IMG/VR virus record: IMGVR_UViG_3300035698_014446
Location: 28,206 to 92,205 of that record
Length of the DNA: 64,000 bases
Reading direction: 5' to 3' (one strand)
Origin: a virus
The notes beneath the pieces are model-generated. The model had not been told where the DNA came from and did no database searches. It worked only from the letters and a program-made list of their open reading frames with translations. Positions 25,460-59,570 of this stretch are shown here, piece after piece (within the stretch, counting starts at the first letter, position 1; every line of letters starts with the position of its first letter). The translations under genes and the position numbers were made by a program.

Positions 25460-25913
25460 TGAACTCACTAAACAAGTACAAATAAACGAGACAGAGTATA
25501 TTTATTATATAGGTGGTTCTGATATATATGGGGAAATGATTGTAGCATTAAAGGAATGTGATATTTCTAACGAAGCAATGCTTGATCTTGAACGTAAAAT
25601 TAGACAAGCGGAAGCAGGACCACGTATTAAAAAGTGGAGACAAAGAAATCCTGATAAATGTCGTAACTACACAAGAAATTATAATATATTAAAACGAGCA
25701 AATGGTATTGGCCTTAATACTGAACAATGGAAGAATATTCTCGAAAAGTACAATTTCAGATGTGCTTATTGTGGTGTTAAAAATAACCTTACCAGAGATC
25801 ATGTGATACCTATTAACAAAGGTGGTGAACATTCTCTAGTGGATGGGTTCCTCATATTTATGGAAAAATATAGATGGCAAGATGTGATCAAATGTCAATA
25901 TTCGACGCGTTGA
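25446..25913 (+). pseudogene. Truncated HNH endonuclease fusion
   Basis: RCAYC...DHVIPINKGGEHS, then lacks the NVVPxCxxCN half present in the paralogues. Confidence 0.6.
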
Positions 25914-26224
25914 ATGTTCTGGAAATGCCAGTTGGTTCAACGATGGAGAATATAAAGAAGAAATATTACGAGTTAGCGATGGTATTTCACCCGGATAAAA
26001 ATCCTGATAATAAGGAAGCAGAAAAAAGGATGAAATTAATTAATGTTGCTTATGAAGTGTGTTGTAAATATGTAGCGTCTAAATTAAAACCAAAACCAAA
26101 ACCAAAACCAAGGCCACAACCGACAAGAAGATCGGGAATACATCCCATTAGATACGTAACATTTACAGTAATGGGTTGTAATGTTAGAAGTAACATCAGT
26201 GGAGTAACGATTACTTTCGTATAA
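25874..26224 (+). CDS. DnaJ J-domain protein
   Basis: IKKKYYELAMVFHPDKNP...INVAYEV, followed by a PK repeat. Confidence 0.9.
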   Translation: MARCDQMSIFDALNVLEMPVGSTMENIKKKYYELAMVFHPDKNPDNKEAEKRMKLINVAYEVCCKYVASKLKPKPKPKPRPQPTRRSGIHPIRYVTFTVMGCNVRSNISGVTITFV

Positions 26225-30049: not shown

Positions 30050-30340
30050 ATGACTGTAGATGAAGTGAAAGGTGAATTAGTAAAATTGTTACCTAACCAT
30101 CATAAATTATTTGAAGTGGATGAACATGAAACTATGGCTGGTAATGGTACTATGGAGATAACAGTACGTATGCGGTTTGGTAGCGGATTTGTCAAGAGAG
30201 AAGATATACATCTTGATGTAGAACTATCAATGTTGATTGCAGAATTTCAGGGTTTTGTATATCTTAAGTTACGGGAAATGATTGATAAACTTAATTTGGA
30301 AAGGGAAAGTAATGGCCAAGAAGAAAAAGACAACAAATAA
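30050..30340 (+). CDS. Hypothetical protein, paralogue of 29518-29778
   Basis: Shared N-terminus and C-terminal L..MI. Confidence 0.6.
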   Translation: MTVDEVKGELVKLLPNHHKLFEVDEHETMAGNGTMEITVRMRFGSGFVKREDIHLDVELSMLIAEFQGFVYLKLREMIDKLNLERESNGQEEKDNK

Positions 30341-30650
30341 AAAAGCAACAAAGAAAGCGACGAAGAAAGCAACGTCTGAGAAGATAGCGCCGAAGGAAAA
30401 AGTAACGCCGAAAAAGACGGGGCCGTTGAGAAATGTAACCATGCGGGGTGTTGGTTCAAGCAATGCTCAGGCGGCAGGTTATGACGCATTAAGAAAGGAA
30501 CTGTTCGTCACTTTCAGAGGCGGAGCCACGTATAAATACAGCAACATTCCGGACTCCATCTATAAAGGGTTGTTGCAGGCCGAATCCTTCGGGAAATACC
30601 TTAATGATAAGATCAAAGGGGTGTATTCCTTCGAAAAAGTCATAAGTTAG
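30312..30650 (+). CDS. KTSC-domain protein with a histone-H1-like N-terminal tail
   Basis: KKATKK repeats, then SSNAQAAGYD...LFVTFRGGATYKYSNIP...LLQAESFGKYLN. Confidence 0.9.
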   Translation: MAKKKKTTNKKATKKATKKATSEKIAPKEKVTPKKTGPLRNVTMRGVGSSNAQAAGYDALRKELFVTFRGGATYKYSNIPDSIYKGLLQAESFGKYLNDKIKGVYSFEKVIS

Positions 30651-31626: not shown

Positions 31627-32260
31627 TAATTTTGACAGACTCAAAAAATTAGCTGGTGGTGGTTATACATGTAATTGTGACAGCGTTACACATATGGTAT
31701 GTGTTGGGTGTATGGCTAATAATGCTTTACGTGATTTGTCCATTAAGGCTTCTGAAAAGTTGGCTGAGATTAAAGAATGTCATCCGGATGTAATTATACC
31801 CATGTAACGGAGAAAAAATGGCAAGGGTAACTAACTGTTCCACAAAATGTATATATCGTTTAGTTTGTGAGGTGGACGGGTATATAGATAAATTGGTTAC
31901 TGGTTAAGATGGAAGTAATCAATGGTTAGTACATATAGTATTTCGGAATAATTGTGTAGCAATTCGAGAATCTGCTTTGTTTCGTTAGAAAATAAAGTAT
32001 GATTCGAGAATATTTTCAACCTTAAAAGGTGTATTTTACGTTCTATAAGGTATATTTTTATATCTCATATACGTTCTAATATATCTTTATACCCATTTAT
32101 GTTGAAAATATTTGTACTCCAGTTATAGTTTTATTATTGCCTACATATATATATACTCAATGTTGACCCGGTATTTGTCAATATTCAGCACCGTCCGTTC
32201 TCTTACCCCGGTCCCGGCATCTGCGCGGCTGAGTCTGCGCCGCCGCCCGGCTTCCCGCCC

Positions 32261-32628
32261 GCGCGCTCCCCGTCCGGCGCGCGCCCGCGCTGCTCTGTGC
32301 GCATACGTCTAGCGCGCCTCGGTGCGATGCACGACTCGGCGCGCTGGTCTTCCCCCGCACCTGTCCGGCGCGCCTCGGTGTGGGGTCTGGCTGGGCGCGC
32401 CGGTCCGCCGTCGCCGCCCGTCCGGCGCGCCCGCCTTCCGTGCGCGCTTGGGCGCGCCGGTCACTTGTTCAAGGTGTCTCCTCGCGCGCTCCGGGTTGGC
32501 GCTCCAATCCGTGTCTCGCGCGCCGCCCTGCCAATGCCGCCTGCGCCAGCCGGGTAGCCCTGCCGTCCCCACCAGCTGAGCACCGCTAACCTGAACGCAC
32601 CAACCGGACCCCCGCCAATCGGGCGCGC
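32261..32628. repeat. Array of ~12 GCGCGC-core motifs with ~27-34 bp spacing (iteron-like), A-depleted on the + strand
   Basis: GCGCGC at 32261, 32277, 32312, 32339, 32368, 32395, 32425, 32442, 32452, 32484, 32518, 32623. Confidence 0.7.
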
Positions 32629-32640
32629 TCTGTTGGGAAA

Positions 32641-33150
32641 AACCAGCCAAGCCGAAAAAAGGCGGGTTGGCAAAACAAAAAGCCAAGCCAAGCCAAACCA
32701 TACCCCCGCTCTCCACCAACCACGCACCCCCCGCCAGCGCAAGCGGGCACGAGGAAATGCTACACGCCAAGGCGAAAAACCAGCCCCCACCGGGAAAAGC
32801 TAGCCGGGAAAAGCCACACCCGGTTACGCAAAGCCAGCCGTTGGGACGAAAAGCCAGCCTTTGCCAGCAAAGCCCCCGCTGAGGAAACGCGCCAACCGAG
32901 GCAGAGAGCCACTAAACCGGGTGAAGCCCCACGGAAAAGGGGCCGCCGCACCCACACCCATAGGGCCGCCGCACCGACGCAAACACCCCCGCCGCACCAA
33001 CACCATCGCCCCCCGCCGCAACCCCGCCCAACAGACCGAGAAGCACCCACCCGCGCCAACAACGCCCGGCAAAGCGAAACGGAAACACAAAACCCGAGAG
33101 CCGAGGCCGAGCGATAAGGCCGAGCAACAAGGCTGAACCGCCAAAGCGGG
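32641..33150. other. T-depleted, probably non-coding GC/A-rich tract with AAGCC(A) and GCCGCACC repeats
   Basis: 21 T in 32641-33120 (480 nt) by hand count. Confidence 0.75.
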
Positions 33151-33323
33151 TTAAGTTGTGTGGCGTCCGCACCACGCCGCTCCACCGCACGGGAAGCCGC
33201 GCCCGGGGCCAAGAATCACCGGGGCGTCGCCCCCACCTCGACCGCGCCAACGTAGACGGGAAGCCAAAGGAAGGGCCACGCCGAGGTCGAGGACAGGGCA
33301 ACACACCAAGACGGGCGCAGAAA

Positions 33324-33362
33324 TGTGGTCCGCTCGACACATCGCGTAGTCCCGACACTACG
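33324..33362 (+). promoter_or_regulatory. Tandem upstream activator-like palindromes (TGT-N12-ACA and CGT-N12-ACG) for promoter 1
   Basis: tgtggtccgctcgacaca (33324) and cgtagtcccgacactacg (33345), 21 bp apart. Confidence 0.55.
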
Positions 33363-33413
33363 CCACCGGACCGCGCACCCCCTCTCCTGGCCTCCCGTGA
33401 AGGGTACGCGCTC

Positions 33414-33428
33414 TGGCACGCGGGTTGC
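33414..33428 (+). promoter_or_regulatory. sigma54 (RpoN) -24/-12 promoter 1
   Basis: TGGCACG-CGGG-TTGC, followed by tcttttttagg. Confidence 0.85.
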
Positions 33429-33497
33429 TCTTTTTTAGGTGGGGGCCGCCCACCGGGCGGCTCCCGCCGCCCCCCTGTCGGGGGCGGACCACGAATC

Positions 33498-33535
33498 GGG
33501 GCCACCCGTCCCCACGAGTCGGGCAGAATAGGAGC
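33498..33535 (+). ncRNA. 5'-UTR pseudoknot motif copy 1 with SD
   Basis: P1 gggg/cccc, P2 cccg/cggg, loop acgagt, then cagaataggag. Confidence 0.6.
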
Positions 33536-33542
33536 ACCAACC

Positions 33543-34016
33543 ATGACCACAAAACAAACGAACGAAGAAAGGGCCGCCGCACACCGTGCCGCCGCCACCG
33601 AACACGAAGCCCGTGCTGCCGGACCCGCCACAGGAGGCCGGACCGACAACCACGAAGCCCGCGCCGCCGAACACCGGGCCGCCGCCCAAACACACACAGC
33701 AGCCGCCGCCGCACAACGAACAGCAGCCGCACCGGCAACCAGCACCGAGAAAAAGTGCACCGACGCCAACGCCGCCGACGTCACAACGACACACGCCACC
33801 GACGCCACGCTCGCCGCCGCCGACGCCCGCAACGGCGTACCGGCAACCAGCACCGAACAAGCCGCCGCCGGAGCCGCCGCCGAAGCCGCAGCGGCGCAGA
33901 ACGAAGCCGAGCGCCAGACGGACCGGGGTCGCCCCGACCATGCCGCTCGCGCCCGGACCGAAGCCGCCGAAGCGCACGATGCAGCAGCAGCACATCACCG
34001 CACCGCCGCCGAGTAG
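33543..34016 (+). CDS. Ala/His/Thr-rich early protein encoded almost without T
   Basis: AGGAG RBS, first gene after promoter 1, 14 T in 474 nt, HRAAA repeats. Confidence 0.75.
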   Translation: MTTKQTNEERAAAHRAAATEHEARAAGPATGGRTDNHEARAAEHRAAAQTHTAAAAAQRTAAAPATSTEKKCTDANAADVTTTHATDATLAAADARNGVPATSTEQAAAGAAAEAAAAQNEAERQTDRGRPDHAARARTEAAEAHDAAAAHHRTAAE

Positions 34017-34136
34017 CACAACAGCCCCGCCCCTCGGCCAGCGAGCCGGGGGGCCGTCGGGCCAGCCCCCGCAACAGCGGGGGCGAGCCCGGCGCGACCG
34101 AGCGACCCGCACAAGCGGGAAGCCGACGACGCCAAA

Positions 34137-34177
34137 CGGGACCAGTCCGGACCCGACCAAACCGGGCAGAACAGGAG
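34137..34177 (+). ncRNA. 5'-UTR pseudoknot motif copy 2 with SD
   Basis: P1 cggg/cccg, P2 gtccgg/ccgggc, then agaacaggag. Confidence 0.6.
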
Positions 34178-34185
34178 CAACGATC

Positions 34186-34755
34186 ATGGGAACCAGACAA
34201 AGCAAGAACAGCACAGGCCGCAAGGCCACAGAGGCCAAAACAGGAACCGCAACCCCCAACACGATCAGCAAGGCCACGCCGCCGAGCGCACCCGCGCCGA
34301 CCCCCGCCGAAACCACCGTGCCCACCTCATCGGTCGTCGATGTCCGCGACCTCTCAGTTGCCGAGCTTCGACTACTGCTGACAGAGGCCAAAACACGCGA
34401 AGCTCCCGCCAAGGCCGCAGCCAAAGGACAGGCTAAGCTCGCCAAACTCCGGACCTATGCGGTCCGGCAGCGGGCGTGGGCCGAGTCGCAGACTGCCAAA
34501 GCTAGCACGGCGTGCGACCGGGCCGACAAGGCCGAGGCCGCACTGGCGACCTACGAGGCCAAGTTGGGCATCGACCCCGCGACGGAGGCCGAAATCGCCG
34601 CGACTCTCGCCGCGCTGATCGCCTCCGGGCGAGTCGTACAAGTCGATTCGTCCTCTCTCGTCGGGCCAGAGCCGGAGGGGACCGAGGCTGAGACCGCAGT
34701 CGCCGACGTCGAAACCGCCAAGACCGACGACAAGGCCGACTCCGCCGCCGCGTAG
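34186..34755 (+). CDS. Early coiled-coil protein, GC-rich paralogue of 37239-37847
   Basis: LSVAELRLL...KLAKLRTYAVRQRAWA...YEAKLG...GRVVQV aligns without gaps to the paralogue. Confidence 0.85.
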   Translation: MGTRQSKNSTGRKATEAKTGTATPNTISKATPPSAPAPTPAETTVPTSSVVDVRDLSVAELRLLLTEAKTREAPAKAAAKGQAKLAKLRTYAVRQRAWAESQTAKASTACDRADKAEAALATYEAKLGIDPATEAEIAATLAALIASGRVVQVDSSSLVGPEPEGTEAETAVADVETAKTDDKADSAAA

Positions 34756-34975
34756 TGCGGAACCAGCTCCACCGACGCCCCCGCCTCGTGCGGGGGCCAT
34801 CGGGCCGACGCCCCGACCAACCGGGGGCGTCCGCCCGGTGACGGACCGCCAACGGGGACGGTGCACGTCCGCTGCGAGCGGACGCCGCCTCCGGGGGCCG
34901 ACTGCGCCTCCGCTACGAGCGGGGAGCGTCGGGGGCCAGCGCGCGAGCGCGGGCCGCCCCGCCAAGGCGGGCGAA
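34756..34975 (+). other. Cluster of about six GC-rich stem-loops in an intergenic spacer
   Basis: e.g. gcccccgc/gcgggggc, gacgcccc/ggggcgtc, cgtccgc/gcggacg. Confidence 0.55.
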
Positions 34976-34982
34976 CAGACAC

Positions 34983-35019
34983 GGGCACGGGTCCGCCCAC
35001 GAACGGCCCAGAACAGGAG
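34983..35019 (+). ncRNA. 5'-UTR pseudoknot motif copy 3 with SD
   Basis: P1 gggc/gccc, P2 gggtc/ggccc, loop acgaa. Confidence 0.6.
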
Positions 35020-35027
35020 CAAGAACA

Positions 35028-35288
35028 ATGGAACACGAACAAGAACAGAAAAGAGCAATCGTTATCAGCTATCGCGAGCTGTACAAGCTTGGTATGCCCA
35101 ACGACGAGATACACGGTATTCTCGTTGTGGGACACGACAAGTGGGCAGCTATCGGGGCTACGGTTGACCTCTACATGGATCCCAACGAAAACACAGCGTA
35201 TCTCGTCGTCCGGGGTGTTAGCGAAGCAATCATAGCGCTAGTACACGAAATGACTGACCAAATGATAGACATCAGCTACACTGACTAA
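35028..35288 (+). CDS. Hypothetical early protein
   Basis: AGGAG RBS and pseudoknot leader. Confidence 0.7.
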   Translation: MEHEQEQKRAIVISYRELYKLGMPNDEIHGILVVGHDKWAAIGATVDLYMDPNENTAYLVVRGVSEAIIALVHEMTDQMIDISYTD

Positions 35289-35399
35289 GCAACAACCGAA
35301 TAATCAACAACTAACGTTTCCCCGGCTTGCCGGGGCCACCGGGTCATCATCCGCGTATGCGGGCATCCGCTCGGTGTGTAGGTGTACACCAAACCAAAC

Positions 35400-35436
35400 G
35401 GGTATGGACCGGCCCACGAATGGTCCAGAACAGGAA
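35400..35436 (+). ncRNA. 5'-UTR pseudoknot motif copy 4
   Basis: P1 gggt/gccc, P2 tggacc/ggtcca, loop acgaa. Confidence 0.6.
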
Positions 35437-35444
35437 CAGGAACC

Positions 35445-35939
35445 ATGAGACACAAACAGAAACAGGCGCAAACAACCACCTCAATGCACATTGATGCAGC
35501 ACAGGCACTTGACGCGTTGGCTACTGCTACTGATGATGCAGAACAGACCGCATCATACGTCGCTGATGCCGCTGAACACCGCCGCGCTGCCAGTGTAGCT
35601 AATCAAGCCACAGTTGTTAACAACTTGGTTAAACAAGCACAAAAGCAAGATAACGCAACAAAGGCTGCAGGTGGTATCGGGCATATTGCAGTAGCAACCG
35701 AACATCGTGTCGCTGCTGCCGCACATGATCAGGCAATGAAAAATGAGTTGGTGGAGCACATTAACGGACCAGATATAACCATCGAAGAAGTAATTGCCCT
35801 GTACAACGTGTTAGCACAGAACGAAATCCTTGAAAAAAGAGCATTGGATGACATGGTGGAAGAGATAGTGGAACATCTTTCCGGCGGTGACGTTACTAAG
35901 GAAGAAGTAATACGAATGTATTGCACATTAACGGAATAA
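35445..35939 (+). CDS. Ala-rich early protein related to 33543-34016, with a duplicated C-terminal motif
   Basis: AAEHRRAA and TEHRVAAAAHD. ELVEHINGPDITIEEVIALY repeated as EIVEHLSGGDVTKEEVIRMY. Confidence 0.65.
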   Translation: MRHKQKQAQTTTSMHIDAAQALDALATATDDAEQTASYVADAAEHRRAASVANQATVVNNLVKQAQKQDNATKAAGGIGHIAVATEHRVAAAAHDQAMKNELVEHINGPDITIEEVIALYNVLAQNEILEKRALDDMVEEIVEHLSGGDVTKEEVIRMYCTLTE

Positions 35940-36020
35940 AAACCACGTTAGCGGTAAATAGCGTTAACGTGCTGTGTGTACGTTGTGTTAAAACAACATG
36001 TATCAATGACTGTTGATGTA

Positions 36021-36194
36021 CATATACCACCGGTTGTATATGAGACATCATGAGAAGCATTGACATACAACCGATGGTATATGATGAGCATGTTACGTAC
36101 AAACAACATAATGTTGTGTTGAAACAACATGCCCAATGTACCAACCACAACCGGTGGTATACCGAACAGTACAATATACAACCGGTGGTATATG
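36021..36194. repeat. Four palindromic operator-like boxes, consensus ATAC(A/C)ACCGGT(G/T)GTAT
   Basis: Copies at ~36021, 36064, 36146, 36174. Confidence 0.75.
36091..36129 (+). promoter_or_regulatory. Tandem TGTT(A/G)-N8-CAACA upstream activator-like sites for promoter 2
   Basis: 36091 and 36112, 21 bp apart. A third copy at 35981. Confidence 0.7.
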
Positions 36195-36202
36195 TGGCTT
36201 TC

Positions 36203-36217
36203 TGGCACGCGGATTGC
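36203..36217 (+). promoter_or_regulatory. sigma54 promoter 2
   Basis: TGGCACG-CGGA-TTGC, followed by tcttctttagg. Confidence 0.85.
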
Positions 36218-36294
36218 TCTTCTTTAGGGTGGAGGCACAATCTCCAAGGGCAGGTCGCCAGTCTCGACGAATCTGGCAGATAGGAGCACGAACC

Positions 36295-36606
36295 ATGTGT
36301 GAGGAACGAACAGGGACTCCGGCTGAGGAACACGCCCGCGATCATGCGGACTTCGTGGCTGGACAGGAGGCCGTTACTGTTCTTGCCGGACAGGTCAGGA
36401 TGGGTCCGGTCGAGCAAGCCGCTGCGTGCGGCTACGCGGTTGATTGCAACGACTGTCAGCAGAGGCACAAATGCGCAAGGCACTCCATCAACGAACTGTG
36501 GCTTGTGGTTCACGCTAATCGCGACCACGACGCTATTCTTGAGGCGGCTGAAAGTAGGGCCATGACCGCAGAGAACCTGATCGGGGTCATCAAGCGGCTG
36601 CTGTAG
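36295..36606 (+). CDS. Hypothetical early protein with CxxC
   Basis: AGGAG RBS. First gene after promoter 2. Confidence 0.7.
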   Translation: MCEERTGTPAEEHARDHADFVAGQEAVTVLAGQVRMGPVEQAAACGYAVDCNDCQQRHKCARHSINELWLVVHANRDHDAILEAAESRAMTAENLIGVIKRLL

Positions 36607-36685
36607 CACTGATATCGTCCCTTGCTGATTGCAGGGGGCGTCAGGCCTACGTCCGCGATGGCGGACGTTAACCTAACGCAAATGA

Positions 36686-36722
36686 GGGTATGGGTTGACC
36701 CACGACAGACCCAGAACAGGAG
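36686..36722 (+). ncRNA. 5'-UTR pseudoknot motif copy 6 with SD
   Basis: P1 gggt/accc, P2 tgggtt/gaccca, loop acgaca. Confidence 0.6.
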
Positions 36723-36727
36723 TAGTC

Positions 36728-36925
36728 ATGAATGACAATATAACAGCAAAAGACATGGAAAACATCCAAATCGTCGACAAACACACCTATTATATTGTAA
36801 TTGTTGGCCAGGTGTACTTGTCGGCTAACAACAGCCTTACGCCAATATTGTCCGCAGCAAAACAATACCCCAATTATAACGCCGCAAGTTATGCTGCAGA
36901 TTTATGGCTCGAGAGTACGTATTAA
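36728..36925 (+). CDS. Hypothetical early protein
   Basis: AGGAG RBS and pseudoknot leader. Confidence 0.6.
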   Translation: MNDNITAKDMENIQIVDKHTYYIVIVGQVYLSANNSLTPILSAAKQYPNYNAASYAADLWLESTY

Positions 36926-37238
36926 CCACTATAACCTTTTTATGGGAATAGAATTATGATACTTGATTTAGACTCACGCAAACACGAAATAACTAACGAA
37001 AAGGAACAGATTGTCCATGTTGACAATGCAAAAGTATTTTGGATTAACGGCGAAGTCGAAGATTGCTCATTATCGTTTCAACGACTGGCAAACTTCAACT
37101 TTGATTTTGATAAACTCGACGACTTCTATAATAATAACTAACTTTCGCCGCTCCTAGCCCCAGCCGGTTCAATTCCGACAAGCGGTTTAATGAGTAAGAA
37201 ATTGAAAACTTAATAATACTTTTGAAAGGAAAAGAAAC

Positions 37239-37847
37239 ATGAGTAAAAGTAGAAAAAACAAAAGCAGTCAGAGTCCGAAACAGGTCCCAAAACGTGCTAG
37301 CGAAAAGGCAATGCGTGAAAGCACATCCAAGAAAGGGCCAAAACTATCGCCAAACACCCACGGAACTGAGAATAACCCAAAACAGGTTGACGAAAGTAAA
37401 ATTGCCGCCATCGACGCTGCTGCAGCCGATAAGCCTGAGAAAATAATCGACCCAAAGATTGCGGTAATACTGGCTAAGCCGCCAACTGAATTAACCGTCA
37501 AAGAGTTACGAATCCTGATCAAGTACAAGGAAGGCGACAAAATTGCAGCCAATGCTGCAGAGCGAGGCAAAAACAAGCTTGCCAAAATGCGAACGTATGC
37601 TATCCGTCAACGAGCGTGGGCAGACAGACAGACGGAAAAAGCCGAGGCATCCGAGAAGAAAGCCACAACCGCGGAGGCCAAACTGACTGAGTACGAGGTA
37701 AAGATTGGGGTTGAAGAATTGACTGACGAGGAGATTGACAAGGTACTAAAAGAATTGATGAGTCAAGGTCGTGTGGCTCAGATATCAATTAAGAAAATTT
37801 TGGAACCACACGAGGATGATCAAGCAGCAACAACGGTAATCAGTTAA
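37239..37847 (+). CDS. Coiled-coil protein, normal-composition paralogue of 34186-34755
   Basis: LTVKELRIL...KLAKMRTYAIRQRAWA...YEVKIG...GRVAQI. Confidence 0.85.
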   Translation: MSKSRKNKSSQSPKQVPKRASEKAMRESTSKKGPKLSPNTHGTENNPKQVDESKIAAIDAAAADKPEKIIDPKIAVILAKPPTELTVKELRILIKYKEGDKIAANAAERGKNKLAKMRTYAIRQRAWADRQTEKAEASEKKATTAEAKLTEYEVKIGVEELTDEEIDKVLKELMSQGRVAQISIKKILEPHEDDQAATTVIS

Positions 37848-37850
37848 TGA

Positions 37851-37902
37851 ATAGCTACGGTACGGCAGAGTTATAAGCTCTGTCGGTCCGTAACTGTTTT
37901 TT
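37851..37902 (+). terminator. Probable rho-independent terminator
   Basis: Imperfect stem tacgg..cggcagag/ctctgtcg..ccgta followed by a T-run. Confidence 0.55.
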
Positions 37903-38646
37903 AATTTTTAAAAGGAGCAGAAACATGAGTGCAAAATACGTAATATACCATAAAGGTGGTGGGTACTTACAGGAAGACGGTAACTACACTAATGATATTA
38001 AAAAAGCATGGATTTTCAACACCAAAGAAGATGCCGAAATTGAAATTGCTGGGTGTAGTGAAAAAGTGGAAACTGTAACTATATAATAATATTGTTTTAA
38101 TCAACACGATTAAAACATAAAAATAAAATTAGAGAGTTTAGACTAAAATGAAAGGAAATAAAGATGGAAGCTTATTTTTGTAAAAATTGTAAAGTAGTTA
38201 TTCTTGAAGATGAATTAGAGAATGACTGTTGTCCTCATTGTGGTAATGGGGAGCTAGAAATAGTTCCTAAAGAAACTCAATAACTTTTACCGGAAATACT
38301 GTAGTGATAACGCGTTAAATTGCGGAATCATCAGCTTAAAATCGAAGGGGTGGACTCTTGACAAAAGATCACCCACCCACGATCGCTTCATTGTGGCTTA
38401 CAAACCGGTTTTAACGATTCACAAGTGCTAATTAACAGAAGGACAAAATAACATGGCAACTATGGACCCAATACTGAAAAAAGAGATAAAAAGCGTTATA
38501 GAATCGTTTGAATTGTTTGCTGAGGAAGTACTACCTCAGTCCGGTTCAATAGTCTTTGATATCGGCAATCTGAACGATGGTCTATTATTGGCTAAAAAAG
38601 TGAAACACTACTTAGATGGTTTGGACTAAACAAAAGGAAGGACAGA

Positions 38647-39024
38647 ATGATGCAGATAGGTAATATTGAAAAACATTTAGAAGACAACTGTAGTCTTGAG
38701 GACATACAGGAGTTGAGCAAGGCTTTGGGTATAGCAATAAAGCACCTACCGAATATACTGGTGTCGGAATTGTACCTCAGGGCATTAACCGCCAGCGTTA
38801 ACATGATCGGACACAAGAAAGGCGATGAACCAGCAGCGGACCTGATCAAGCGGTTGTGCAAAGAGCATAATGAAACAGAAGAATACATCCGCGGGACAGC
38901 TATTGACGCAGCCATGCAGACGATATCAAGCTTAAAACATGGCGATATTTTTGACATGCTGGGTCTTGAGGATGATGATGAGTTATTCAAGTTTATTGAT
39001 ATTGCGATAATACTAAACCTGTGA
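38647..39024 (+). CDS. Hypothetical protein
   Basis: ORF with AAGGA RBS. Confidence 0.6.
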   Translation: MMQIGNIEKHLEDNCSLEDIQELSKALGIAIKHLPNILVSELYLRALTASVNMIGHKKGDEPAADLIKRLCKEHNETEEYIRGTAIDAAMQTISSLKHGDIFDMLGLEDDDELFKFIDIAIILNL

Positions 39025-39037
39025 ACAGTAGTGGGCG

Positions 39038-39142
39038 TGTTGCGTCGGTGCAACATGTGTTTATTCGGCGCAACATGGCCTACCGGGATATATACAACGG
39101 GTTGTATATTGGGTATCACTAACATACTACCCGTAGTATATG
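39038..39142 (+). promoter_or_regulatory. Tandem TGTT-N9-CAACA-type sites (39038, 39058) and two ATAC..GTAT palindromes (39089, 39123) upstream of promoter 3
   Basis: Same order and spacing as at promoter 2. Confidence 0.7.
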
Positions 39143-39148
39143 CCATCT

Positions 39149-39163
39149 TGGCACGAAGTTTGC
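39149..39163 (+). promoter_or_regulatory. sigma54 promoter 3
   Basis: TGGCACG-AAGT-TTGC, followed by tctttttagg. Confidence 0.85.
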
Positions 39164-39181
39164 TCTTTTTAGGGTAGAGAT

Positions 39182-39220
39182 TGGCGGCGGACCGGCCAGT
39201 GACAGGTTCGAGATTTGGAG
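39182..39220 (+). ncRNA. 5'-UTR pseudoknot motif copy 7 (fully covaried)
   Basis: P1 tggc/gcca, P2 ggacc/ggttc, then GGAG SD. Confidence 0.55.
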
Positions 39221-39225
39221 CAGTC

Positions 39226-39654
39226 ATGAGTGAGTATTTTAAAGTAGTTGAGTTTAAGCATGGTGGGAACAATGAACACGTAGAAACAGTACAGCGTGTG
39301 TCAGGACTTCCTATAGAACAGATCAAGGGTGAACGGTTTAAAGGACAGGTATGGTTCACAACTCTTGGCATCATCGTCTCAACCTACGATGGTGAAAATC
39401 AACGACAGCTAATTGTAAACGCTGATCAGAGTGGGAGAACAGAAGTATTGATGATCTACTCACCAGTTGACAGTCCGATGATCATCGAACACACGGTGTG
39501 TGAAGGGCAAACCTATCAACAGAGGCAGGAAGGGATTATGGTCGACAGGGCGGGCATCATCAACCCAAAGATTGAGGAGTTTATGACTTCTATCCCAGAT
39601 GAAGCGGCCAAGATCATAATGGACTCCGAACTATGGCAGTATATGACATACTGA
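39226..39654 (+). CDS. Hypothetical early protein
   Basis: GGAG RBS. First gene after promoter 3. Confidence 0.65.
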   Translation: MSEYFKVVEFKHGGNNEHVETVQRVSGLPIEQIKGERFKGQVWFTTLGIIVSTYDGENQRQLIVNADQSGRTEVLMIYSPVDSPMIIEHTVCEGQTYQQRQEGIMVDRAGIINPKIEEFMTSIPDEAAKIIMDSELWQYMTY

Positions 39655-44820: not shown

Positions 44821-45471
44821 ATGGACTTAGAACGGATAAATAATACGTATGGTAAAATGATTTGGTCTATTGCCGGTAGATACAGTACAGGGGTATGGGA
44901 CCAGATGGACGTGTACAATGAGTTATTGTTACAAGTACTCATTGGTATGGAGAGAGGACAGATTCCGCCAGACGGTTCTGAGGAATCCAAATCCAAGGTT
45001 GCTCAATTTGTAATTTGCAGATCAATAGATATTGTCAGAAATGAATATCGACGAAAAGGAATGTGGAGTCTGTATACCAGTAGAAAACTAATAGAAGAAT
45101 TTGACGAAAATTCCGTCGAGGCAAGATCGTCAGAGTACGATTACGAAATGGAAAAGCGATTTATATGGGAAATGTTGCAAACGTTATTACCTATTAAATC
45201 AGCCATATTTGTATACGAATTAACCTTTCCCCGACAAAAAACAATAGAAATAGCTATGCGAGATAAAATCAACGCTGAAAACGACCCAAAGTTGAGGATG
45301 AACAGTGCCAATCTTAAAATTCTCCCCCGACACGTGGCCGAGGCTTTGGGTCCTGATTTTAAGCTGTCCAAAGCCACAATGAGCAGAATCAAACAACAAG
45401 CCAGAACAGTAATTGAAAAAGCTCTAGATTTGGAAATGGAAATCAAAAAATGTTATGTAAGTGGTGAATAA
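44821..45471 (+). CDS. Phage sigma-70/ECF-like sigma factor
   Basis: Region 2-like YGKMIWSIA...DVYNELLL...RSIDIVR. Region 4 HTH HVAEAL...SKATMSRIKQQAR. Confidence 0.65.
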   Translation: MDLERINNTYGKMIWSIAGRYSTGVWDQMDVYNELLLQVLIGMERGQIPPDGSEESKSKVAQFVICRSIDIVRNEYRRKGMWSLYTSRKLIEEFDENSVEARSSEYDYEMEKRFIWEMLQTLLPIKSAIFVYELTFPRQKTIEIAMRDKINAENDPKLRMNSANLKILPRHVAEALGPDFKLSKATMSRIKQQARTVIEKALDLEMEIKKCYVSGE

Positions 45472-45907
45472 TATAATGGATAGACAAGACTTAATAAGTG
45501 CTGCAAGAGACTTGTTAATCGTGGTTGATAACCCGAAGTCTCTTTGTCCTCAGGAAATAGAGAAGATAAGAATAAGATTTATTAAGGAGTTGGAGGCAGA
45601 GAAAGAGAGACAATTATCACGGGCAAGTAAAGTCTGTGTCAATTGCGGATTCTATATGTTGTCTGCAAATGGATGTGATACTAAGTATATAGCAATGGAC
45701 GGCAGTTACTATCTGCGAATATTGGTTGAAGAAAAAGGCCTTACCAAGGAAGGTAGATGCCATGATTGCGGTGCTTTTCTGGGTAAAATTCACCACATGG
45801 GTTGTGATATGGAGAGATGTCCTATATGTAAAAAAGGTCAATTTATAACCTGTGATTGTATAATTGGTAAAGAAGTATCAACGGTGAACGTAAACGAGGA
45901 AAGGTAA
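45461..45907 (+). CDS. Cys-rich Zn-binding protein
   Basis: RCHDCG...HHMGCDMERCPIC...CDC. Confidence 0.6.
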   Translation: MVNNIMDRQDLISAARDLLIVVDNPKSLCPQEIEKIRIRFIKELEAEKERQLSRASKVCVNCGFYMLSANGCDTKYIAMDGSYYLRILVEEKGLTKEGRCHDCGAFLGKIHHMGCDMERCPICKKGQFITCDCIIGKEVSTVNVNEER

Positions 45908-46396: not shown

Positions 46397-46615
46397 ATGG
46401 ATGACACAAAAAGAATAGTTTTTGGTTATCATAACCTTACTGCAGCGGCTATGGAGAACGTTAAAAAGAGAATAGCCGATGAGAAATTACCTATTAAGGT
46501 GCGCATGCAAATACACGACGAGGTAGTTTTTGAAGTACCGAAGGATAAACTTGCGGAGTACACCAAACTGGTATCCGAAATGATGAAAGTGGAAATTTTT
46601 AGATTACAATGGTAA
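46397..46615 (+). CDS. Stand-alone PolA C-terminal (motif C) fragment
   Basis: AMENVKKRI...MQIHDEVVFEVP...LVSEMM. Confidence 0.6.
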   Translation: MDDTKRIVFGYHNLTAAAMENVKKRIADEKLPIKVRMQIHDEVVFEVPKDKLAEYTKLVSEMMKVEIFRLQW

Positions 46616-53955: not shown

Positions 53956-54252
53956 TTACCAATCTAATGCGTTTGAATCAATACAAGCTATAGCAAAAGT
54001 ACAAGATACGCCTAAATCTTCTAATTCCTTTTTTACTTCTATTAACGATTTTCCGTGAACTGCATCAATCAGTTCATCATACTCTTCAACGATTATTCCC
54101 AACAATTCGTGTCTTGACAACCACGCACCCGCTCCCTTTTCTTGAAGTCTCATGCGTAATTTAGTAAGTACTTTTGAATGCGCCACACGAATAGTTTCAT
54201 CTTTTATTTGTGACCGGTGATCTTTGTCGCTCCTTTTTTGAGTCTTACTCAT
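53956..54252 (-). CDS. MazG-like nucleotide pyrophosphohydrolase (MazZ candidate)
   Basis: EEYDEL...KELED all-alpha NTP-PPase motif, 98 aa. Confidence 0.7.
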   Translation of the reverse strand: MSKTQKRSDKDHRSQIKDETIRVAHSKVLTKLRMRLQEKGAGAWLSRHELLGIIVEEYDELIDAVHGKSLIEVKKELEDLGVSCTFAIACIDSNALDW

Positions 54253-56117: not shown

Positions 56118-56573
56118 TTAGTTTTTTGTAGAACCGAATCCTTTCTCTCCACGAACAGTCTCCGGCATTTCCTCCTCAACTACTGTTAACACCGGAGTGG
56201 CAACAATTATTAGTTGCGACAGACTTTCCCACGGTTTAATCAATACCGGTCTGTCAATATGCATAAGATTTGGATGCCAAACAAATGAAAATATAGGTCC
56301 GGTGTACCCACTATCTATCAGGCCGCCTACCACGAACAGCTTTTTCTTAAAGAACGTGGATGATCTTGCCCGGACCAGTCCACAGAATCCGTCCGGGATT
56401 TTAACCCGTATTCCGGCATTAACCTGTATGCTCTGGTATGGTGCAAGGGTTAATGTTTCATCTGTAGCATTAAACAGATCAAACCCGGCATCACCTTTCA
56501 AAGCTTTACTAAATTCTGCTCTGTCACGTACTTCATCGTTATCGTATTGAACAATTATCTGCGGATTACTCAT
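56118..56573 (-). CDS. dut: Trimeric dUTPase-fold protein
   Basis: DAGFDL, RSS, GLIDSGYTG, SQLII, RGEKGFGST. Confidence 0.85.
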   Translation of the reverse strand: MSNPQIIVQYDNDEVRDRAEFSKALKGDAGFDLFNATDETLTLAPYQSIQVNAGIRVKIPDGFCGLVRARSSTFFKKKLFVVGGLIDSGYTGPIFSFVWHPNLMHIDRPVLIKPWESLSQLIIVATPVLTVVEEEMPETVRGEKGFGSTKN

Positions 56574-58406: not shown

Positions 58407-59570
58407 TTATGCCTTAATCACGGCTAACGGTTTTAGTTCAACCACTATATCTACTAAATCTTTTTGATTTTCCATGACAACTGTTATATCTTTATACGCG
58501 CCGGATGCCTCATCCAAATCTGTTACTGATCGAATAGAATGGATAATGTTGGAATCATTGAGAAACTTAATTTCTTTCTCAAGATCAAGTTCACGCCTTG
58601 CTTGATTCCTGCCCATTTTTCTACCAGCACCGTGGGAACAAGACATAAAACTATCACGACAACCCTTACCCTTAACAATGTAACTTGATGTACCTTGTGA
58701 CCCAGGTATTATTCCAATTTCACCATCTTTGGCGGACGTTGCACCCTTACGATGAACTATAACATTTTTACCAAAATGATTTTCCCACCGAGCATAATTA
58801 TGGTGTACATCAATTGGGGAATCGTTAAAATTTTCTGATGTTGGTCCATCGAGGCAGTACTCTACTTTTTTCATCATTAATGCTCTACTATTTTTTGCAA
58901 ACATTAGTGCGTAATTCATAGCCTCTATGTATTCTTTAGCTTCGTTTGTTTCTATCGGTAGAAACGCAAGACCATCCTCACCTTTACAGACAGGAATGTT
59001 AGAATACCATCTTTCACAAAGTGATTGTGCGATTTTGTTGTACTCTTTAGCTATTTTAAGTCCGAAATTACGACTTCCGGAATGAAGCATTATCCATATA
59101 TAACCATCAGACCCCTGTTGTATTTCTATAAAATGGTTTCCACCACCAAGCGTCCCCATCTGCTTTCTCGCTGACGCAAGTTGTTTTTGTATTACTGGTA
59201 TATCTGGTGCGACAGCAAACCCCGACCAGTATTGGTTTTCTTTATGATGATTGAATCCTAACGGTATTACTTCTCTAATAGCAGACATAACCATCTTTAA
59301 TTCTGCAGTAGTAATAGATTTTCTGGCAGTTTTAACAGCACACATACCACAACCAATATCCACACCTACCGCGTTAGGAATTACTACGCCGTTTGTGGCT
59401 AAAACTCCTCCTATTGGCATGCCGTACCCTCTGTGAGCATCCGGCATTATAGCTACGTGTTTAAACGTAAATGGGAGATTTGCTAAATCTATAGCTTGTT
59501 TCACAGCCCCATCCTCAATGTCGTCTAACCACATTTTTATAGGTTTGCTCTCTGTTATTAATACTTTCAT
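58407..59570 (-). CDS. rtcB: RtcB RNA ligase
   Basis: MPDAHRGYG, VGVDIGCG, GTLGGGNHF, HSGSR, HRKGA, SHGAGR, DEASGAYKDI. Confidence 0.95.
   Translation of the reverse strand: MKVLITESKPIKMWLDDIEDGAVKQAIDLANLPFTFKHVAIMPDAHRGYGMPIGGVLATNGVVIPNAVGVDIGCGMCAVKTARKSITTAELKMVMSAIREVIPLGFNHHKENQYWSGFAVAPDIPVIQKQLASARKQMGTLGGGNHFIEIQQGSDGYIWIMLHSGSRNFGLKIAKEYNKIAQSLCERWYSNIPVCKGEDGLAFLPIETNEAKEYIEAMNYALMFAKNSRALMMKKVEYCLDGPTSENFNDSPIDVHHNYARWENHFGKNVIVHRKGATSAKDGEIGIIPGSQGTSSYIVKGKGCRDSFMSCSHGAGRKMGRNQARRELDLEKEIKFLNDSNIIHSIRSVTDLDEASGAYKDITVVMENQKDLVDIVVELKPLAVIKA

Follow-up and report, generated by a model that had tools for sequence, protein, structure and literature searches.

We analyzed a 64,000-nucleotide stretch of phage DNA (here called the window) comprising bases 28206 to 92205 of the 92,205-bp virus record IMGVR_UViG_3300035698_014446; the phage comes from salt-lake metagenomes, and all positions below are those of the window unless another genome is named. 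The subject is a 2.8-kb island at positions 32190 to 35027, most of which is nearly devoid of T on the + strand. The phage also encodes PurZ, which in other phages accompanies the replacement of adenine by 2-aminoadenine (Z). The initial annotation had proposed that the island is a "boot sector" in which the first early genes of a Z-genome phage are spelled so as to keep Z out of the template strand until phage factors are made. The proposal is only partly supported: the analysis bears out an island that is real, unique, and native and a PurZ that is genuine, but neither the first position of the island nor its conservation among purZ-positive phages.

Layout and composition of the island

The island is preceded by a very AT-rich spacer (31808 to 32189) containing a sigma70-like site on the + strand (TTGAAA-16-TATAGT, 32102 to 32129) and an (AT)n run at 32134 to 32150. 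The run is length polymorphic, and the contig from run X1 carries an extra AT after position 32144. The left arm of the island (32190 to 32640) is non-coding, is 74% GC with 8% A and 17% T on the + strand, and holds a hairpin array centered on GGCGCGCC with 57-bp spacing. Two copies of a hairpin or cruciform, CCGGCGCGCC-N21-GGCGCGCCGG, lie at 32365 to 32405 and, 57 bp beyond, at 32422 to 32462. The single Escherichia coli Chi sequence at 32571, although in protective orientation, was set aside as being at about the level that we estimate for chance in DNA of this composition. Rightward of the arm lies a 773-nucleotide non-coding stretch (32641 to 33413, + strand) rich in A and C (28% A, 39% C, 27% G, and 6% T). 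It carries three iteron-like units with the core GCCGCCGCACC at 23-bp spacing (32928 to 33004), and by eye a degenerate fourth copy seems to be present up to approximately 33030. Neither non-coding arm showed codon periodicity, neither folded as RNA better than shuffled sequences (z = -0.4 for the left arm and z = +0.9 for the 773-nucleotide stretch), and an Rfam search returned only a chance microRNA match.

The remainder of the island reads rightward on the + strand. A sigma54-type promoter, P1 (TGGCACGCGGGTTGCT, 33414 to 33429), matches the -24/-12 consensus exactly and is followed by leader 1 (33430 to 33542), in which the shared motif CAGAATAGGAGCA (33524 to 33536) stands ahead of the ATG of gpA, an orphan gene of 157 amino acids (33543 to 34016). 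Leader 2, the intergenic region that follows (34017 to 34185), is 2% T and carries CAGAACAGGAGCA at 34167 to 34179. It precedes gpB (34186 to 34755; 189 amino acids), a diverged paralog of gpH, which lies downstream at 37239 to 37847 and has normal composition. Leader 3 (34756 to 35027), also intergenic, is 77% GC and 6% T, contains the shared motif at 35009 to 35021, and ends the island. The next gene, gpC (35028 to 35288), is the first of near-normal composition (49% GC and 20% T) and marks the right edge. Three of the five copies of the leader motif CAGAACAGGAGCA fall inside the island.

Recounting reproduced the three base counts of the initial annotation exactly. On the + strand, there are 8 A in the 240 nucleotides from 32221 to 32460 (z = -4.8 relative to the rest of the genome), 21 T in the 480 nucleotides from 32641 to 33120 (z about -5), and 14 T beside 122 A in the 474-nucleotide open reading frame (ORF) of gpA (z about -5). 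The background for the T counts, taken from 480-nucleotide windows over the whole genome outside the island, was 151.7 +/- 26.7 T, with a minimum of 66. From 32641 to 35027, T makes up 158 of 2,387 nucleotides (6.6%) and A makes up 573 (24%), with a GC content of 69%. The longest T-free run in the island is 138 nucleotides, the longest A-free run, in the left arm, is 103 nucleotides, and the AT skew flips sign near 32600. A scan of A and T over all 92,205 bp found no other 500-nucleotide window with fewer than 50 A or fewer than 50 T, and the island is the only one of its kind in the genome.

Both edges of the island are abrupt. On the left, the GC content rises at 32190 from approximately 33% to 61 to 72%, confirming the previously described jump from AT-rich to GC-rich DNA. 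On the right, the poverty in T ends sharply at approximately 35030 to 35060, at the start of gpC, and not by the gradual relaxation that had been claimed. A gradual trend is seen instead at third codon positions, where a milder preference for C over T persists beyond the island: C/(C+T) is 0.85 to 0.9 in the island, approximately 0.5 to 0.6 up to about 41.6 kb, and 0.2 to 0.45 after that, compared to 0.2 to 0.35 elsewhere. The zone of weaker excess coincides with that of the sigma54-type promoters.

The abrupt change in GC content could be taken as a sign of assembly chimerism or a sequencing artifact, as could the k-mer depth of the contig that carries the island, which is 12.7 compared to 4.5 to 8.2 for neighboring contigs. 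The difference is clear in the probable source run only; mapping to public runs used assembled contigs, so depth here means the k-mer depth of contigs. The higher depth might stem from a terminal repeat, from GC bias, or from a library yield that improves when DNA is poorer in Z:T pairs. An independent Logan contig from the probable source run, however, covers 31961 to 35494 and bridges both edges, and pieces of the island and its flanks recur at 100% identity in three other studies. Moreover, the argument made earlier against a chimera, that promoters, leaders, and a paralog are common to the island and to normal-composition DNA, is upheld, and the promoter and leader segments are 78 to 89% identical to their downstream copies. 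Because an independent contig bridges both edges and because the promoter, leaders, and paralog are shared with the neighboring DNA, we conclude that the island is native phage DNA. An artifact is extremely improbable.

Recoding of the island genes

T is scarce at every codon position of gpA (1, 3, and 5% at positions 1, 2, and 3, respectively), and 144 of the 157 codons contain none. The encoded protein is nearly confined to the 12 amino acids that T-less codons can supply, consisting almost wholly of Ala, Thr, Glu, Arg, His, Asp, Gln, Gly, Asn, Pro, and Lys, and the gene has strong 3-base periodicity. At 4-fold degenerate sites, gpA has 23% A, 60% C, 12% G, and 5% T, compared to 30% A, 12% C, 22% G, and 36% T in normal genes of the same phage. 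Pyrimidine-ending codons end in C in 88% of cases in gpA versus 27% in normal genes, and purine-ending codons end in A in 71% versus 66%. The loss of T is equal in coding and non-coding DNA, with intergenic regions at 2 to 6% T and the 773-nucleotide stretch at 6%. Third-position T in gpB is 6%, and most of the T remaining in that gene falls in places where its conserved hydrophobic core requires it. A, too, is less frequent in gpB and in the rightmost spacer. Elsewhere, T is kept in the -24/-12 elements of the sigma54 promoter and the adjoining T-run and in start and stop codons.

Because purine choice in gpA is normal and because G011, a relative with 64% GC, is not T free (13 to 18% T throughout), the recoding is not the product of general GC pressure. 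We conclude that the recoding is a replacement of T by C on the sense strand that is pyrimidine specific and involves no general GC drive. The survival of functional T's indicates that the unit is under purifying selection. Together, the sequence facts call for a process that acts on one strand only and on a single type of base pair. Hypermodification of thymine was considered and ruled out, since the template strand is the one that keeps its T.

No family or homolog was found for gpA, and Pfam and PHROGs searches with the island and neighboring proteins gave no informative family. A candidate paralogy between gpA and gpD was rejected as not significant (E = 0.91), and a reduced-alphabet search for an unmutated progenitor did no better than its shuffled control. 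Comparison of gpB with gpH gave a BLASTP E value of 4e-30 at 41% identity, and judged by this similarity, gpB is a true paralog of gpH. In the family tree, gpB lies on a long branch and is not sister to gpH. Orthologs of gpH occur in other metagenomes, and homolog P0005 is carried on a contig of 85 kb. An AlphaFold model of the gpH family predicts a disordered N terminus followed by a single long helix of 70 residues, which offers no functional clue. A gpH query matched nothing in IMG/VR or, by tblastn, in GenBank phages. The gpB/gpH family alignment used as a query found nothing in IMG/VR or GTDB genomes and a single 2.8-kb contig, of normal composition, in JGI metagenomes.

One way in which a native island could differ so sharply from its surroundings is if it were swapped in by recombination at the conserved leaders from a GC-rich phage of the same group, such that its composition would be that of the donor and without function here. 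The sharp edges, the right one at a conserved leader, are consistent with such an import, as is the existence of G011 within the clade. Also consistent is the long branch of gpB, which falls outside the group formed by gpH and homologs P0003 and P0004; gpB is nearer to the Ala-rich homologs P0006 to P0008 (51 to 54% identity) than to gpH. A GC-rich donor, however, would not yield 24% A beside 6.6% T and leaves the strand asymmetry unexplained, and G011 itself contains no long T-free stretch. Moreover, no donor-like sequence was found in the collections searched (GenBank phages, IMG/VR, GTDB genomes, and JGI metagenomes), a nucleotide similarity search of the region against GenBank phages gave no match, and neither did a promoter-plus-leader pattern search of IMG/VR. 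We consider import improbable.

PurZ, sigma54-type promoters, and the position of the island

PurA enzymes carry the motif GDEGKG where PurZ enzymes have GSTGKG. The PurZ candidate of the phage (57221 to 58375, - strand) has the latter motif, its P-loop sequence QWGSTGKGK aligning opposite QFGSTGKG of phiVC8. It is closest to phiVC8 PurZ (6FM1; E = 1.2e-52), followed by S-2L PurZ (7ODX; E = 8e-39), and is more distant from the best PurA (E = 9e-17), such that its identification in the initial annotation was correct. A replicative helicase gene flanks PurZ, a dUTPase-fold gene lies nearby (56118 to 56573; E = 1e-13), and a MazG-like gene at 53956 to 54252 has a subthreshold match (18.9 bits versus a cutoff of 22). 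The PolA gene is further off. Far from that full-length gene, a 72-amino-acid ORF (46397 to 46615, + strand) aligns with the C-terminal portion of family A DNA polymerase (PF00476 positions 309 to 360; E = 6e-11) and could be a gene fragment or a small paralog. Adjoining PurZ is an RtcB-type RNA ligase gene (58407 to 59570, - strand; PHROG 1075; E = 4e-120), a placement that may point to the mending of RNA cleaved by host nucleases. Given PurZ, the phage presumably has a Z genome, with the modified deoxynucleoside (dZ) in virion DNA.

Whether Z in a template is costly bears on how the island is read. Z-DNA templates have been found to give 35 to 85% less protein in an E. coli cell-free system, and a cost of template Z for bacterial RNA polymerase (RNAP) is plausible but not established. 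The link between the island and Z rests on co-occurrence and on in vitro data from other polymerases.

Three exact sigma54-type promoters (consensus TGGCAC-N5-TTGCW, with GG at -24 and GC at -12) lie on the coding strand, namely, P1 at 33414, P2 at 36203 to 36218, and P3 at 39149 to 39164. Five matches were found when up to one mismatch was allowed, a count that was equaled in none of 100 shuffles. Enhancer-like sites of the ACAACCGGTGGTATA type are repeated before P2, where there are four, and before P3, and they are degenerate and GC shifted before P1. Two PurZ-encoding relatives, G006 (46.6 kb) and G007 (44.6 kb), have the same promoter type with enhancer-like sites ATATACCACCGGTTGT and TGTTGTGTTAAAACAACA, ahead of a homolog of the DUF932 gene. 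Promoters with such sites occupy 36020 to 36220 and 39085 to 39165 in the window, G006:C1:20020-20325 (L171) in the first relative, and G007:C1:12380-12690 (L172, L173) in the second. The genome of the phage gave no match to an AAA+ enhancer-binding activator (PF00158), and no recognizable AAA+ activator gene was found in the phage, G006, or G007; a host activator would therefore be needed. The pattern suggests a clade of Z-genome phages that use host sigma54 together with a host or unconventional activator. Recognition of the -10 element by sigma70 is said to be impaired on Z-DNA (PMC8342488), and ATP-driven promoter opening might suit such DNA. A search for a phage-encoded RNA polymerase gave no match, a weak blank given that control genomes likewise gave none.

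The two relatives also share with the phage a syntenic PolA-SSB-PurZ-kinase-like-dUTPase-helicase-primase module at 27 to 53% amino acid identity. All called genes of G006 and G007 are on one strand, with the sigma54 promoter directly after the primase gene, and compared to theirs, the replication module of the present phage is inverted relative to the sigma54 zone.

The position of the island was difficult to reconcile with a boot sector. The rightward gene block begins at a divergence point at approximately 24.7 kb. Lying 7.4 kb into this block, behind about 20 co-oriented ORFs of normal composition, the island probably does not hold the first early genes. Nor could a genome end, or DNA that is copied first, be placed there. 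The two ends of the record overlap by 127 bp within the PolA gene, through which the assembly closes as a circle, and the terminase belongs to the PBSX family. Leftward transcription of the A-poor arm, also implied by the initial annotation, found no support in the form of an ORF or a convincing promoter in the hairpin array. The vicinity of 32600 does have origin-like features, namely, the 23-bp-spaced repeats, the hairpins, and the adjoining AT-rich spacer, but neither an initiator gene nor a turning point in the skew was found. In our view, the island is neither a boot sector common to all Z phages nor the DNA that is read first. Also on the + strand upstream of the island are a DnaJ J-domain gene (25874 to 26224; E = 6e-15) and a KTSC-domain gene (30282 to 30650; E = 1e-19).

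Candidate explanations and comparison with known systems

One possible explanation, which we favor tentatively, is that an accessory cassette peculiar to this lineage is under selection for a template strand without A/Z, which amounts to selection for a transcript without U. The cassette (32190 to 35027) comprises the GC-rich hairpin array, the 0.77-kb non-coding stretch that bears the iteron-like repeats, promoter P1, and gpA and gpB together with their leaders. Rightward from 32641, sense-strand T would have been exchanged for C wherever function allows, leaving a template almost without A, and hence without Z, and a transcript almost without U. A template free of the modified base would be readable regardless of what Z does to RNA polymerase and regardless of factors that bind or damage Z, and U-free RNA would also escape RNase E-type sites and U-tract terminators. 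Selection on expression of the unit would most likely maintain the T-free spelling. From the sequence alone, a Z-free template and a U-free RNA appear inseparable as targets. We infer three components of the scheme, namely, that the DNA contains Z, that transcription runs rightward and includes the non-coding 0.77 kb, and that selection rather than mutation bias is at work. Selection of this kind explains the purging of coding and non-coding DNA alike, the retention of functional T's, and the sharpness of both edges, the right one of which is at a gene start. It is more doubtful that, as a consequence, the sigma54-driven cassette would be readable, or would survive Z-directed attack on only one strand, independently of the genome-wide substitution. 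We are similarly hesitant to suggest that the sequence of such a cassette would keep one of its strands unmodified within a genome that is otherwise modified throughout.

A number of observations weigh against selection for a Z-free template. Within the phage, P2 and P3 precede genes with 15 to 28% T. In G006 and G007, the DNA past the sigma54 promoter is T rich, with third-position C/(C+T) values of 0.29 and 0.12 to 0.21, respectively, equal to the backgrounds of the two genomes, and no island was found in either contig, each of which is approximately half a genome by CheckV. The AT skew at third codon positions is -0.05 for the whole genome of the phage and -0.17 to +0.09 for cultured Z phages, within the range of 45 control loci, such that genome-wide avoidance of sense-strand T in the phage and in cultured Z phages is no greater than in the controls. 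Given this skew and the T-rich genes after the same promoter type, Z-rich templates are therefore read routinely in the clade. Close relatives include L091 (PurZ, 72%) and L003 and L006 (TerL, 87 and 80%, respectively). Close terminase relatives are represented by short contigs that end before the position of the island, and none shows it. Retrieval with an alignment of five PurZ proteins, where a single PurZ query had found nothing, yielded 80 PurZ-positive viral loci totaling 1.21 Mb, G006 and G007 among them. No kilobase-scale island was found around these 80 genes, which contained a single 300-nucleotide window with less than 6% T, or in ZP6, phiVC8, BUCT555, and the first 50 kb of Burkholderia phage Bm1. 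The island expected by the initial annotation in related purZ-positive phages is thus absent from both half-genomes and from the 80 loci.

Other points against the selective reading come from the island itself and from the premise of Z. The 0.77 kb upstream of P1 is T poor, no promoter for it has been established, and its purging is unexplained unless it is transcribed from further left. T lost from 4-fold degenerate sites became C and not A, which the phage otherwise prefers, and this fits a process driven by transitions at least equally well. With neither a hydrophobic core nor a homolog, gpA may not be a working protein; its ORF possibly encodes no real protein, because T-free sequence stays open by default. 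Finally, no HD-type DatZ was found among the ten PurZ neighbors scanned, and the presence of Z is unproven.

The cultured PurZ phage Bm1 (L090) has a stretch at 45200 to 45400, within an early gene (45130 to 45708, - strand), in which A makes up 2% of the + strand and T makes up 2% of the sense strand. The stretch would be a much smaller echo of the same bias or may be a low-complexity coding repeat.

A serious rival is that the island is a mutational footprint, left by local, strand-specific conversion of A or Z to G on the minus strand from 32641 to 35027 and on the plus strand of the left arm, with selection doing no more than keeping those T's that function requires. Z that is deaminated at C6 becomes G. 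By one route, therefore, such deamination would produce guanine directly and leave nothing to repair; by another, G would be misinserted opposite T when dATP or its Z counterpart, dZTP, is scarce at the onset of replication. The DNA affected, close to an origin or a genome end, would be either single stranded or the first to be copied. Consistent with a footprint, C has gained what T has lost while sense-strand purines of gpA are untouched, as one-strand A-to-G change predicts, and coding and non-coding DNA are affected alike. Moreover, gpA is rich in His, Thr, Ala, and Arg, the T-to-C products of Tyr, Ile/Met, Val, and Cys/Trp codons, the skew flips near 32600 beside the AT-rich spacer, hairpins, and origin-like 23-bp repeats, the weaker excess of C over T extends to approximately 41.6 kb, and a mechanism specific to Z DNA fits the presence of PurZ.

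Other features fit a footprint poorly. A graded rather than a sharp boundary would be expected. Spontaneous damage to single-stranded DNA should be mainly C to T, which would enrich AT and lower the GC content, whereas the island is 69% GC, and an enzyme able to deaminate A or Z within DNA is not known in this setting. Were there an origin at 32600, the strands exposed as lagging-strand templates would be the opposite ones, and no origin, end, or antisense promoter has been demonstrated. The footprint is absent from the other PurZ phages and relatives examined, and neither the gpA-gpD comparison nor the reduced-alphabet search revealed an unmutated progenitor copy. We regard a mutational origin as rather unlikely.

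Selection might instead act on the RNA without any role for Z, as U-free transcripts would escape U-dependent endoribonucleases (RNase E and many toxin and HEPN RNases) and lack U-tract terminators, such that the products of the cassette would be made even when host RNases are unleashed. The sequence facts behind the preferred explanation apply equally here, the RtcB ligase is a sign of conflict over RNA cleavage, and the lack of an island in PurZ-positive relatives and other Z phages means that its cause need not be Z. Against this alternative, a literature search found no precedent for natural U-free mRNAs, and the phage encodes no convincing RNase, the sole candidate being a subthreshold Mut7-C match. 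Selection on the RNA explains neither the A-poor left arm nor why the sole island seen should sit in a rare PurZ phage, and we judge it unlikely.

If selection for a Z-free template is true, the island would be the first natural sign of an in vivo cost of 2-aminoadenine in the template, and it would show that a phage can escape its own genome-wide base substitution through the spelling of its genes. The island would then give access to the ways in which Z-DNA is handled by host RNA polymerase, sigma factors, RNases, or defenses and would supply a design rule for synthetic Z-DNA. If the island is mutational, it would reveal a strand-specific Z-to-G (or A-to-G) process in phage DNA, one that would newly account for compositional islands and for orphan proteins that, like gpA, draw on only 12 amino acids. 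Under both readings, the locus is a clean natural experiment: within 4 kb, one promoter type, the leaders, and a gene and its paralog are found spelled both without T and normally.

No counterpart to the island was found; several known systems resemble it in part. Z-genome phages (S-2L, phiVC8, ZP6, and SH-Ab 15497, with PurZ, MazZ, DatZ, and DpoZ) resemble the present phage in that PurZ is accompanied here by PolA and nucleotide-pool genes. They differ in that the four cultured Z phages examined (Bm1 over its first 50 kb) have no kilobase-scale T-free stretch, and in ZP6 and phiVC8, sense-strand T shows no more than a mild dip, to 11 to 12%, across the first early genes. Among real systems, the boot-sector idea comes closest to the first-step-transfer (pre-early) region of T5 and its relatives, a delimited block of small genes of unfamiliar families that must work before the rest of the genome. 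What delimits the T5 block is its location within the terminal repeat together with injection in two steps, not base composition, whereas here no genome end could be assigned to the island, the terminase belongs to the PBSX family, and about 20 co-oriented ORFs precede the island.

Avoidance of restriction sites in early-entering phage DNA is alike in that a local word rule overrides codon and amino acid choice. Known motif avoidance concerns short words, usually palindromes, on both strands, whereas here one base is banned on one strand over 2.4 kb, a ban that removes all palindromes containing A or T but raises the number of GC-only sites. The G-less and U-less cassettes used for in vitro transcription are also units without one nucleotide and can be transcribed without that nucleoside triphosphate or the matching template base. 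They are laboratory constructs, and the literature search found no description of a natural counterpart or of any natural U-free or T-free transcription unit. Finally, the heavy and light strands of vertebrate mitochondrial DNA and the APOBEC3G gradients of human immunodeficiency virus likewise pair a G+T-rich, A-poor strand with an A+C-rich partner, with effects that reach amino acid usage. Those footprints are graded, are dominated by C-to-T change, and enrich AT, whereas the island described here is sharp, enriches GC, and is contained within 2.8 kb.

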